This document shows positions 27,826-50,488 of a stretch of 64,000 nucleotides of DNA, one piece after another. This DNA comes from Candidatus Aenigmatarchaeota archaeon (GTDB lineage Archaea > Aenigmatarchaeota > Aenigmatarchaeia > GW2011-AR5). The stretch's first letter is position 1; each line of letters starts with the position of its first letter. The stretch spans positions 128,001 to 192,000 of the forward strand of contig JACPJW010000001.1 of the NCBI GenBank assembly GCA_016187335.1, written 5' to 3'. The notes beneath the pieces are model-generated. The model was not told where the DNA came from. It worked only from the letters and a program-made list of their open reading frames with translations, and did no database searches. A program made the translations under genes and the position numbers.

Positions 27826-27977
27826 TTGATTAAACTTTCTTTCTAAGAAAGTTTACAAGAACAGGGTTATTATAAGCTAATTCTTTTGGTGCAACTTTTC
27901 CTAAAAGTTGCTTTGATTAAACTTTGGATTTACTGGCCACAAGTCTCTTTTGGTGCAACTTTGGAGAAGCAAATTGC
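27826..27977 (+). repeat. Cluster of four family A mini-hairpin copies
   Basis: TTGAT+taaactttctt/tct/aagaaagttta; TTGGT+gcaactttt/cct/aaaagttgc; one partial and one degenerate copy. Confidence 0.8.
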
Positions 27978-37630: not shown

Positions 37631-37714
37631 TTTTATCACTTGTCAAGATGGATGGATAATTCTTCGTTCAATTTTCTCATTAGCTTATTTTAATCGAACA
37701 ATCTCGTTCCCTTT

Positions 37715-37740
37715 TTGATCAAACTTTTTTGAAAAGTTTG
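37715..37740 (+). repeat. Family A mini-hairpin after the rps13 stop
   Basis: TTGAT+caaactttt/ttg/aaaagtttg. Confidence 0.85.
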
Positions 37741-46910: not shown

Positions 46911-48041
46911 CTACCATCGTTTCACGAAAACCTGGAAAAGCAGTGATGTCAGGACAATGCTTGCAATTGACAGCAAAACGACAAGCGTGAATACAGCCGG
47001 GCCTATGAGCGATGCTGTCATTGCTACATAAGCCGCTATAATGGATATCTCGCCGCGCGGCATCATTGCTATGCCGACGGTCAGCTGGTCGCGGCCGCCG
47101 AAGCCGTAATGCCTGGTGAGAATCCCGGAGCCTATGAACTTGGCGGCTGTCATGAGCAAAAACAGCGGGACGAAATGCTGCGCCTGAACCCCCGTTCCGG
47201 CGGAAAGCGCGACGTATGCAAAAAACAGCGGGACGAAAAAGCCGTTGGAAACCGTCCTTATTTTAGGCTCTATTACCGATTCTGTAAGCGGTGATTTGCC
47301 CAGCAGAAGGCCCGCGACAAACGCCCCTGAAACTGCCGCAATTCCTGCCTGCTGCGTTGCGTATGAAAGCAGGAAAACGGCGACGAGGGCTGCAGCCACT
47401 ATAAACTGGTCGTCGTTCATCTCTTCCAGAAATCCGAAAAACTGGCCTATCCGTTTTGACAGGGCGGCGGCTATTACAATTATGGACAGCGACAGGATGA
47501 AGAATACGGTGGCGCTTTTCCATGCCTCGCTGAACGAAAAATAGCCTATGAAAGTTGAAAGGCCGATTATTGATATCATGTCGCCGTACAGGACCGCGGA
47601 CGTTATGAGCTTTCCGGCTTTTGAATTCAGCTCGCCGAGGGATGACATTGCCCTGGAAGATATGCCGCTGCTCGTGGACATGAAGGCGATCCCGATCACC
47701 ACGGCGGCCTTGAAATCGTAAAAATAATAGCCGGCCGCGAACCCAAGAATGAAAGGAACAACAGCCCCCGCTATCCCGAGCGATATTCCCTGCTTCGTGT
47801 TCCCTTTTGTTTTTTCTACGTCTATGTTAAGCCCTATCAGGAATATTGCAAAAAGCATTCCGAGATTCGCCATCTCGCCGAGGAGCGGGCTGGGGGAGAC
47901 AAAATTAAGAAGGGGCCCCGCAATAAAGCCGCCGGTCATTTCCCCGACAAGCGAAGGGACCTTCAAACGCTCCGCAATCTCGCCGAAGATTTTCGCGAAT
48001 ATGAGCAATATGGCGACGCTGAACAGGATTTCAACGGTCAT
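46911..48041 (-). CDS. Cation:proton antiporter (CPA2/KefB-like)
   Basis: About 12 TM; start MTVEILFS; MMPRGEISII. Confidence 0.88.
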   Translation of the reverse strand: MTVEILFSVAILLIFAKIFGEIAERLKVPSLVGEMTGGFIAGPLLNFVSPSPLLGEMANLGMLFAIFLIGLNIDVEKTKGNTKQGISLGIAGAVVPFILGFAAGYYFYDFKAAVVIGIAFMSTSSGISSRAMSSLGELNSKAGKLITSAVLYGDMISIIGLSTFIGYFSFSEAWKSATVFFILSLSIIVIAAALSKRIGQFFGFLEEMNDDQFIVAAALVAVFLLSYATQQAGIAAVSGAFVAGLLLGKSPLTESVIEPKIRTVSNGFFVPLFFAYVALSAGTGVQAQHFVPLFLLMTAAKFIGSGILTRHYGFGGRDQLTVGIAMMPRGEISIIAAYVAMTASLIGPAVFTLVVLLSIASIVLTSLLFQVFVKRW

Positions 48042-48121
48042 GATTTCATTACGACTTCTTCCAAATATAAAATAATTCTTTCTTTCCGCCAGAGCTTTCT
48101 TTTTAAAGAAAGGTCTAAGAG

Positions 48122-48252
48122 CGCCGAGAGGGAGATTTGAACTCCCGCGAGCACGAGGCTCACAAGCTTTCTTACAACCTTCCCTTTTGATGCAACTTTT
48201 GGGAAAAGTTGCTTCCAGGCTTGCGCGTTGGACCAAGCTCCGCCATCTCGGC
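48122..48252 (-). tRNA. tRNA-Ser(GGA) with a 44-nt intron at 37/38
   Basis: Acceptor GCCGAGA/TCTCGGC, G73, CAAGC-CT-GGA-A|intron 48212-48169|A-GCTTG, long variable arm, GGGAG-TTCAAAT-CTCCC. Confidence 0.92.
48187..48212 (+). repeat. Family A mini-hairpin inside the tRNA-Ser intron
   Basis: TTGAT+gcaactttt/ggg/aaaagttgc. Confidence 0.9.
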
Positions 48253-48281
48253 AGAAGAGAAGAAACCTGCGGTTTCTCTCT

Positions 48282-48336
48282 TTGCGCAGAAACCAAAGGT
48301 TTCTGGCAATCCCAGAAAGCTCTTGCTTTCTGAGGA
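48282..48336. repeat. Family B double hairpin
   Basis: ttgc-g-cagaaacc/aaa/ggtttctg-gcaa-tcc-cagaaagc/tctt/gctttctg-a-gga. Confidence 0.8.
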
Positions 48337-48408
48337 TTCTAATCTCATTTCCCTTATTACAAAATATTAAAGAATTAGTTTATTAGGGCTCTGAGAAGCC
48401 CTACCCTT

Positions 48409-48434
48409 TTGATTAAACTTTTTGGAAAAGTTTA
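48409..48434 (+). repeat. Family A mini-hairpin after the Trm112 stop
   Basis: TTGAT+taaactttt/tgg/aaaagttta. Confidence 0.85.
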
Positions 48435-48602
48435 TCAGAACTTCTCCGCGTCCTCCAGGAGCATGTCCGGTATGTCTTCATCTATAACAGAAAACCGCAG
48501 CCTGCATTTCTTGCAGGAAAGCCTGTTCTTCTTCCTGTCGTAGTCCAGGTCGCCCTTGCATTTCGGGCATGCAAGTATGTCCAGAAGCTCTTTTTTGAGC
48601 AT
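48435..48602 (-). CDS. Trm112-family protein
   Basis: MLKKELLDILACPKCKGDL..LSCKKC..F.VIDEDIPDML; translated by hand. Confidence 0.88.
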   Translation of the reverse strand: MLKKELLDILACPKCKGDLDYDRKKNRLSCKKCRLRFSVIDEDIPDMLLEDAEKF

Positions 48603-49702: not shown

Positions 49703-49739
49703 GAAGAGAATTATCCGAGCAAGAATTAAAATGGCCGTT

Positions 49740-49765
49740 TTGGTTAAACTTTTTTGAAAAGTTTA
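49740..49765 (+). repeat. Family A mini-hairpin overlapping the DUF106 stop
   Basis: TTGGT+taaactttt/ttg/aaaagttta. Confidence 0.85.
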
Positions 49766-50383
49766 TACGTAAACCTTCAGCAGCTTTCTCGTCACGACCA
49801 TGAACAGGAGCGCGCTCAGGAAATACCATCCCAGCCATCCCAGATCGCTGCCCACGAAAGGCAGTGCGAAAGGCAGGTAGGCGATGATTCTTGAGAATTT
49901 CACTTCGTTGCCGTTCATTGCAATGTTCCATTTGTAACCGTTCAAAGCAACGCCGTTCTTCGGGGTTTCGATGTTGCCGTAACCGCTTATCTCCACGCCG
50001 CCCTCTGTTTTCTGGACCTGGTAAACGCTCCCGTCTATATTCAGCTCTCCTTTGCCGTCGTTGAGCTTCACTTCCCTGTCGCCGTAAATTCCCGCGATCC
50101 ACGGCAAAGCGAGTATTACTATGATGAAGGAAACAACCATGGGCTTTAGGGACATCCTCATTATCTTGCCGTTCTCGCTCATCAGCTCCCCGAGGAGCTT
50201 GTTCACCTTCTCCGTGTTGCCCTTTTTCTGCTCTTCCTTTATCTTTTCGTTCATCTCCTTCATCCTTTCCCGCGACTGCTTCACCTGGTGCTGGTCCAAG
50301 AGCAGTTTGTAGAATATGTTTATGACCATGATGACGAAGAAGGAGAAAATAAAGACGTCAATTATCGGGGAAAAATATGCCAT
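49763..50383 (-). CDS. DUF106 / EMC3-TMCO1-family membrane insertase
   Basis: TM1, coiled coil, MRMSLKPM, GWLGWYFL. Confidence 0.88.
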   Translation of the reverse strand: MAYFSPIIDVFIFSFFVIMVINIFYKLLLDQHQVKQSRERMKEMNEKIKEEQKKGNTEKVNKLLGELMSENGKIMRMSLKPMVVSFIIVILALPWIAGIYGDREVKLNDGKGELNIDGSVYQVQKTEGGVEISGYGNIETPKNGVALNGYKWNIAMNGNEVKFSRIIAYLPFALPFVGSDLGWLGWYFLSALLFMVVTRKLLKVYV

Positions 50384-50488
50384 GATTATCACTCTATTAA
50401 GCCGAAAGCAAATGTTCGATTCGTGTCAGGAAATTTATCATGAACATCGCTTTGGAAAATTGAACTTCGCCTTTCCTTTTCACTTTAA

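Follow-up and report, generated by a model that had tools for sequence, protein, structure and literature searches.

The 44-nt intron in the sole tRNA-Ser(GGA) gene of a groundwater Candidatus Aenigmatarchaeota lineage is probably an EndA-type intron whose body is a mobile hairpin cassette that replaced or converted an older intron, its two competing folds being a by-product of cassette construction. The gene lies in the window, the whole 64-kb stretch of DNA analysed here, which belongs to the genome G000. In the mechanism that we propose, the intron would be an EndA-type (BHB) intron at the canonical site of this gene, and its body would be one copy of a small mobile cassette common to many Aenigmatarchaeota tRNA and rRNA introns. 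The cassette comprises five parts: arm X, its 3-nt loop, arm X', the AUCAAAA tail and X'', a second copy of the 3' arm. Behind them comes a 4-nt segment fitted to the host exon. Splicing would require the X:X'' helix, which together with a 4-bp exon-intron helix and two 3-nt bulges would form the BHB cut by the endonuclease. The X:X' hairpin is the signature of a dispersed element, whose copies past stop codons are devoid of X'', and competes for arm X. The 37/38 site would be old in the family, with the present sequence acquired afterwards from some other copy of the cassette, through transposition or conversion, and the two-fold property would follow from the build (a hairpin element plus a duplicated or inverted half) rather than constitute a regulatory device.

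The tRNA-Ser(GGA) gene and the anatomy of its intron

Using ARAGORN in intron mode (-i), the gene is predicted on the minus strand with a 44-nt intron (Table 1), the excision of which restores a canonical cloverleaf of 88 nt with the anticodon loop CUGGAAA. The exact splice point can shift by one or two A's, the mature sequence being identical either way. Neither ARAGORN without introns nor Rfam at its gathering score finds a tRNA in the 64-kb window. The Rfam tRNA model has 21 matches in the ~91%-complete genome, of which 12 pass the cut-off; tRNA-Ser(GGA) is absent from all 21, and no second match to its exons was found in G000. In practical terms, most tRNA genes of this genome are missed by standard tRNA finders. 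Running ARAGORN after brute-force deletion of every window around each hairpin was too permissive and was discarded.

In a mechanical listing of open reading frames, a 461-aa minus-strand frame (46911-48296) crosses the tRNA gene. The real gene downstream of the tRNA most likely starts near the ATG at ~48042, and the longer frame could hide the tRNA from automatic annotation. Between the 5' end of the tRNA and the upstream element, at 48262-48333, the window carries three small hairpins of another repeat type (GAAACC...GGTTTC and CAGAAAGC...GCTTTCTG), and the tRNA may have a long structured leader.

On the tRNA strand, the intron opens with a complete family-A element in its bases 1-28, a 9-bp hairpin followed by ATCAAAA, just as the preliminary description had claimed. 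The tail lies 3' of the hairpin and sets the polarity of the element, which for the intron copy is that of the tRNA sense strand. The element is followed by X'' and by a 3' end that differs from host site to host site. Neither the C box (RUGAUGA) nor the D box (CUGA) of a box C/D sRNA occurs in the 44 nt, and Rfam gives no match to the intron.

Table 1. Features of the tRNA-Ser(GGA) gene, of the family-A copies in the window and of the long T-loop introns of G000 (window coordinates unless a contig is given)
Feature	Position	Strand	Remarks
tRNA-Ser(GGA), class II, long variable arm, single copy in genome	48121..48252	-	ARAGORN -i; orthologs in relatives
5' exon, tRNA gene positions 1-40	48213..48252	-	Placed by BHB rule
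Anticodon GGA	48214-48216	-	Within 5' exon
Exon strand CUGG of central BHB helix	48215-48218	-	Within 5' exon
44-nt intron, canonical position 37/38	48169..48212	-	ARAGORN -i and BHB rule
3' exon	48121..48168	-	ARAGORN
Complete family-A element (28-mer, hairpin + ATCAAAA)	48185-48212	-	
Exact family-A core in the intron	48194-48210		Foot GC/GC
Family-A hairpin, intron bases 1-21	48192..48212	-	Arm X GCAACUUUU, loop CCC, arm X' AAAAGUUGC; perfect, 9 bp; splicing-incompetent fold
Conserved element tail ATCAAAA, intron bases 22-28	48185..48191	-	Tail consensus in 61-71 of 71 oriented copies
Arm X + two loop bases, intron bases 2-11	48202..48211	-	CAACUUUUCC; 5' strand of BHB intron helix
X'', intron bases 29-38	48175..48184	-	GGGAAGGUUG; second copy of 3' arm, partner of X + loop
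Site-specific intron 3' end	48169..48174	-	UAAG (bases 39-42) against exon CUGG, then AA (43-44), the intron bases of the 3' bulge
Family-A copy, hairpin + tail	48407..48434	-	Directly past stop of 55-aa ORF 48435-48602, same polarity
Family-A copy	49738..49765	-	Foot overlaps TAA stop of ORF 49763-50392, same polarity
Family-A copy	37713..37740	-	1 nt past TAA stop, same polarity
Family-A copy (copy 27893)	27884..27911	-	Tail variant ACCAAAA, 66 nt beyond nearest long ORF end
Long T-loop introns	G000 C2:716673-716772, 411926-412028, 236569-236671		

Two helices on one arm

A 10-bp helix that includes two G-U pairs can form between CAACUUUUCC and GGGAAGGUUG. The predicted BHB combines this 10-bp intron helix with a central helix in which three of four pairs form (the fourth being a G.A mismatch), two bulges of 3 nt each, and an outer helix that is the anticodon stem extended to 7 bp. 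An hBHBh' motif has two 3-nt bulges separated by a 4-bp helix, with helices on both flanks; the motif of the tRNA-Ser intron has the two-bulge geometry and is a slightly relaxed hBHBh'. Since the hairpin and the BHB helix use the same 5' arm, the two folds exclude each other, and the earlier suggestion of two exclusive folds, one of them BHB-like, is borne out.

A gene for the endonuclease itself is present: PF01974 matches with 97 bits at C2:410532-410810 (L001 1474-2082, minus strand), and no second EndA subunit is found with this model in G000. The protein is a ~200-aa catalytic-type subunit, with the EndA enzymes of M. jannaschii and N. equitans as its best solved relatives. Single catalytic-type EndA enzymes are classically strict. 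The presence of one strict-type EndA, while many introns of G000 and its relatives look relaxed, counts against the cassette explanation that we favor, as does the G.A mismatch in the central helix.

The hairpin alone is predicted at -7.5 kcal/mol (z = -4.8), and the minimum-energy fold of the whole intron is the long-range helix, at -11.5 kcal/mol. Scored within the intron, the hairpin and the long-range helix reach -9.2 and -9.9 kcal/mol, respectively. When the anticodon arm is added, the values are -9.3 kcal/mol for the hairpin state and -14.4 to -16.4 kcal/mol for the long-range helix, with a refolding barrier heuristically estimated at ~11.6 kcal/mol. Unconstrained prediction of the 132-nt precursor misfolds the tRNA body and retains the hairpin; with the tRNA stems enforced, the hairpin and long-range states lie ~1 kcal/mol apart. 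The computed energies thus place the two folds of the tRNA-Ser intron close to each other. According to these models, transcription would yield the hairpin first, and endonuclease binding probably makes the BHB fold the ground state.

To assess pairing across the family, 28 distinct cassettes from 15 genomes were aligned. In this set of related rather than independent copies, where the retrieval pattern fixes the core and leaves a covariation signal in the free columns only, pairing reaches 99.2% for the X:X' hairpin, whose two foot pairs show 13 and 16 double changes, and 93.2% for the long-range X:X'' helix, whose foot shows 10 and 15. The GGG or CUG of X'' matches the loop bases across cassettes. 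For both helices, none of 500 shuffles reaches the observed pairing, and both stand above slid controls. The intron family therefore displays two exclusive structures, each of them conserved, which is the structural pattern of a bistable switch, with the reservation that X' and X'' are possibly alike by common origin; their match could reflect the origin of X'' as a copy or an inverted half of the element.

A folding switch would give this pattern a function. The hairpin would form first in transcription and keep the pre-tRNA splicing-incompetent; refolding, or a factor, would then expose the BHB, with consequences for the timing or regulation of tRNA-Ser maturation, or for the order of intron removal. 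The conservation and covariation of both helices fit such a device, as do the loop CC, which is complementary to the GGG of X'' and would act as a toehold, the proximity of the energies in the tRNA-Ser intron (-9.2 against -9.9 to -11.5 kcal/mol) and the height of the estimated barrier. However, when the intron is considered alone, the BHB fold has a clear stability advantage in most of the family, two intron copies combine a decayed X' with an intact X'', and the type-B introns, including that of the G002 tRNA-Ser, where the hairpin is nested within a separate outer helix, have no competition at all. The decayed and nested copies indicate that fold competition is not obligatory. Orthologs without any second copy nevertheless retain the 37/38 site, and a duplication origin, from which the X'/X'' match is expected, explains the conservation equally well. 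A regulatory folding switch in the tRNA-Ser intron is possible from the folding models, yet we regard it as improbable; most likely, the two folds come about incidentally, through the way the cassette is built, and do not serve regulation.

The dispersed element and the intron cassette

The family-A core AACTTTT-N3-AAAAGTT is found five times in the window, against 0.07 expected, and 70 times in the 1.01-Mb genome, where a reversed-pattern control gives none. Among the 71 tail-oriented copies of the genome, each of the two pairs immediately outside the core forms in all 71, with four to five pair types, whereas the third flanking position is paired in just 20. This sharp boundary of complementarity identifies the element as a 9-bp nucleic-acid hairpin and not as a protein-binding palindrome. 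A G-U versus A-C asymmetry, counted across copies to learn which strand folds, came out at 16 against 13, a figure confounded by indel-shifted copies and therefore uninformative.

The preliminary description had noted that the intron copy has the polarity of copies that follow stop codons. Indeed, three of the four other window copies (37722, 48416 and 49747) share the polarity of the tRNA-Ser copy and are located where a minus-strand ORF has its stop codon. Genome-wide, 11 of the 71 oriented copies lie at most 30 nt past the stop of a same-strand ORF, eight of them at -3 to +4 nt, and four of the 71 are antisense near a converging stop. Outside introns, the element has about 50 copies in G000, often right past stop codons.

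Tandem arrays of two to three element units with a period of 27-29 nt occur at G000 C2:76478-76523 and 803329-803399, so local duplication of the element does take place, and the second arm copy of the introns could stem from it. Immediately 3' of the element at 48407-48434, the window also contains a second hairpin module (48384-48403, minus strand), whose stem is complementary and variable and whose 7-nt loop, UUCUCAG, is conserved. Several other post-stop copies are likewise followed by this module, e.g. near C2:260748, 350735, 716295 and 815417.

In their short, abundant and oriented hairpins, in the conserved flanking motif, in the location just past genes and in the support by covariation, the family-A copies resemble REPs and the hairpin MITEs derived from IS200/IS605. 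They differ from these systems in the cognate enzyme, as the 91%-complete genome G000 has no TnpB gene (PF07282) and, for the Y1 transposase (PF01797), just a sub-threshold fragment of 16.7 bits. That both searches for a mobilising enzyme, Y1 and TnpB, found none also counts against our preferred explanation. The fragment, at C2:791846-791974, resembles the C-terminal part of a Y1 transposase and has an internal stop; it may be a relic. To our knowledge, REPs do not occur as the bodies of BHB introns.

A strict BHB geometry scan around every hairpin copy shows that at least 14 BHB introns in the tRNA, 16S and 23S genes of G000 share one layout. It begins with an exon 4-mer and two bulge bases, followed by arm X (foot, AACUUUU and the first loop bases) and arm X', and continues with AUCAAAA or a longer insert, X'' complementary to X and the loop, an exon-complementary 4-mer and two bulge bases. 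The host sites of the 14 introns are the T-loop (6), the anticodon loop (3, including tRNA-Ser(GGA)), the D-loop (2), the 16S gene (2) and the 23S gene (1). The closest copy in G000, with loop CCC and GGGAAGG, occupies position 37/38 of a probable tRNA-Ser(UGA) at C2:254317-254364. Copies flanked by CCCTTT are type-B introns, in which the hairpin is nested in a separate outer helix.

When X'' is defined as 10 nt or more of unbroken complementarity to X and the loop, within 45 nt downstream, it is present in 9 of 13 intron copies. The other four include the three long introns, in which X'' lies further off. In the 58 other copies, the distribution of X'' is at the level of the distance control. 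It follows that the dispersed element consists of hairpin and tail, and that X'' and the site-matched 4-mer are additions made in introns.

Three T-loop introns of 98-101 nt have the cassette ends and, between X' and X'', two extra conserved hairpins. Tails like theirs also follow some intergenic copies, e.g. C2:894272, 81650 and 653427. Both rRNA genes are heavily interrupted. The 16S gene (G000 C2:239678-242953; L106 1179-4454) extends over 3276 nt although its model has 1478 nt, and the 23S gene (G000 C2:208273-212555; L107 1774-6056) over 4283 nt although its model has 2987 nt.

Orthologous introns, rival origins and known systems

The exact core is expanded in the source genus, with 70 copies in G000 and 16 in the 56%-complete G001 compared to 0-6 in the other genomes of the order. 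Of the 70 genomes and 36 genera of the order, 16 and 9, respectively, contain the intron-type cassette. All 20 cassette copies outside G000 have flanks that are tRNA-like by eye, and 13 of them give a scored BHB. In the core-poor relatives, about 14 of 22 cores are intronic, two follow the 3' end of a tRNA and the others are intergenic. The connection of the repeat with a tRNA intron, initially proposed for this one gene, is thus real and far wider, extending to at least 14 introns of G000 and to 16 of 70 genomes.

An intron at 37/38 of tRNA-Ser(GGA) is present in 14 searched genomes from at least 10 genera and on four metagenome contigs, the carriers including G002, G005, G021, G014, G019, G023, G009, G010, G008, G022, G007, G012 and G024. 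The gene of G013 is without it and has a D-loop intron instead. The ortholog introns measure 26-57 nt, and their sequences are mostly unrelated, even within a genus (G008 and G022). In G014, G009, G023 and G007, the intron is present in genomes that contain no family-A core. G002 has a family-A hairpin in a nested layout with foot CA/TG, G005 and G021 have one with foot GA/TC and a long loop, and G012, G024 and G019 show the same architecture with different arms and AAUCAAGAAA. A metagenome scan with the 5' exon returned four loci, none with family A. In this comparison of tRNA-Ser orthologs, which the preliminary description had suggested, the intron is nowhere conserved unchanged where the repeat is lacking; the intron sequences differ. 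Because unlike introns occupy one site, the site appears to be old and its content exchanged.

Two ortholog introns were compared with their own genomes. The G008 intron has paralogues there and the G019 intron is not repeated, so that the intron of a lineage belongs to its own repeat family only sometimes. The tRNA-Ser(GGA) gene of G024 (C22, L170) has two introns, in the D-loop and at 37/38, both with a AATCTTCTT...AAGAAGATT hairpin and a GATCAAGAAA or AATCAAGAAA tail, and the D-loop intron of G013 (C2, L169) is of that same architecture, with a AATCTTTTCTT...AGAAAAGATT hairpin and a AATCAAAAG tail. These introns show that other genera own hairpin variants of the same architecture.

When comparing intron sequences across genomes, the tRNA-Ser intron of G000 turns out to be 38/39 identical to a D-loop intron of another tRNA in G005, a member of another genus, and to share 39/41 positions with a T-loop intron in G030, a genome of a different family. 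Near-identical introns in unrelated exons are what defines a paralogous intron family in the sense of Fujishima 2010. The converse pattern is also found, as tRNA-Ser orthologs in at least 10 genera carry other intron sequences at 37/38, whether by gain or by replacement. The tRNA-Ser(GGA) intron of G005 itself is a different family-A variant, and two near-identical variant pairs occupy different host sites in G000 and G005. With the site kept among orthologs, the sequence varied and a 38/39 match to another tRNA, a mobile cassette most likely replaced an older intron. Family-A or similar hairpin + AUCAA modules occur in this same intron in G002, in G005/G021 and, as a variant, in G012/G024/G019, which makes long residence with local conversion as possible as recent arrival. 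Of the two origins initially offered, the ortholog data favor arrival of the element, in the form of a cassette that arrives in, or renews, a pre-existing site; birth of the intron from the element at this position is improbable, given the 37/38 introns of unrelated sequence in relatives that include core-free genomes.

How the cassette spreads may be pictured more boldly. A selfish RNA module with two working shapes could spread via RNA without a transposase, a view to which we give about as little credence as to the folding switch. The hairpin with its tail would be the acting or spreading form, carried by the 3' ends of mRNAs and by introns once they are excised and possibly circularised. 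The X:X'' helix would be a built-in 'cut me out' adaptor that recruits the host endonuclease and allows harmless settling in essential tRNA and rRNA genes, and endonuclease/ligase-mediated RNA insertion would be followed by copying back into DNA.

Slightly less plausible still is vertical descent, whereby tRNA-Ser(GGA) would have had a hairpin + AUCAA intron since the ancestor of several genera, its likeness to the dispersed repeats arising because the repeats derive from introns or because the same selection acts on the hairpin. The shared modules at this site in G000, G002 and G005/G021, the compensatory arm-change variant in G012/G024/G019 and the mostly intronic location of cores in copy-poor relatives (about 14 of 22) are compatible with this scenario. 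Nonetheless, three genera differ at the site in feet (GC, CA and GA), loops and layouts, and the G000 copy matches the D-loop intron of another tRNA in G005, unlike the tRNA-Ser intron of that genome. The variant pairs shared between different host sites of G000 and G005 also oppose it, and the cassettes so far group by variant across sites.

The least likely origin is de novo birth from a family-A element inserted into an intron-less tRNA-Ser(GGA): the expansion of the element in the genus, the G013 gene without a 37/38 intron and, as a hint from alignment alone, the contigs of a ~90-93% identical relative, which align with about 20 fewer intron bases, agree with it, but that relative still has the intron, a plain element has neither X'' nor an exon-matched 4-nt end, and the presence of an intron at the exact site in so many relatives, core-free genomes among them, makes it improbable that the element gave rise to the intron at this site.

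For the cassette reading, the closest precedent is provided by the Thermoproteales, in whose tRNA genes paralogous ('transposed') families of BHB-bounded introns with an unknown mechanism of spread were described (Fujishima et al. 2010, as reported in PMC4090602 and bioRxiv 10.64898/2026.10.13.758758). As far as those reports describe them, the likeness lies in the BHB-bounded paralogous introns. The present host is a DPANN archaeon (Aenigmatarchaeota), and its rRNA genes carry cassette introns as well. The core here is moreover a hairpin + tail element that also has ~50 non-intronic copies, often past stops, and its intron copies add a second arm copy, giving two exclusive folds. A 2026 preprint with a census of Asgard tRNA introns found none that would serve as a general arrival route (bioRxiv 10.64898/2026.10.13.758758). 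The literature searched contains neither a dispersed hairpin repeat as a shared intron core nor an X/X'/X'' design.

ARMAN-2 (Ca. Micrarchaeum) has heavily disrupted tRNA genes that are cut by an epsilon2 endonuclease, and no shared intron repeat is reported for it (PMC3239211). G000 is likewise an ultrasmall DPANN genome (~1 Mb, 47% GC) with most tRNA genes interrupted at many positions, but its EndA is a single ~200-aa catalytic-type protein compared to the three-unit ARMAN-2 enzyme of ~395 aa, and its relatives are Aenigmatarchaeota; on these two grounds, an identity with ARMAN-2 was rejected.

A further parallel is the tRNA-Trp intron, a canonical BHB intron with a second, separately conserved RNA module, in which guide-target pairing is said to compete with the BHB fold. 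The module in the tRNA-Ser intron differs in being a dispersed repeat, without C/D boxes or an Rfam match, and not a guide RNA. What the present analysis adds is a series of orthologs for one essential gene, the finding that X'' is confined to introns and a test of both folds across the family.

The gain of archaeal tRNA introns is still an open question, and the selfish-module reading, if true, would answer how they arrive. The moving unit can be defined to the base, as a hairpin element, a second arm copy that forms the splice helix and a 4-nt host-matched end. Such a unit, traceable across genera in an essential single-copy gene with a fixed intron site and changing intron content, makes the question testable by cleavage assays and comparative genomics. 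Taken together, the tRNA-Ser intron is a concrete, though not unique, example of the exchange and renewal of archaeal tRNA introns.
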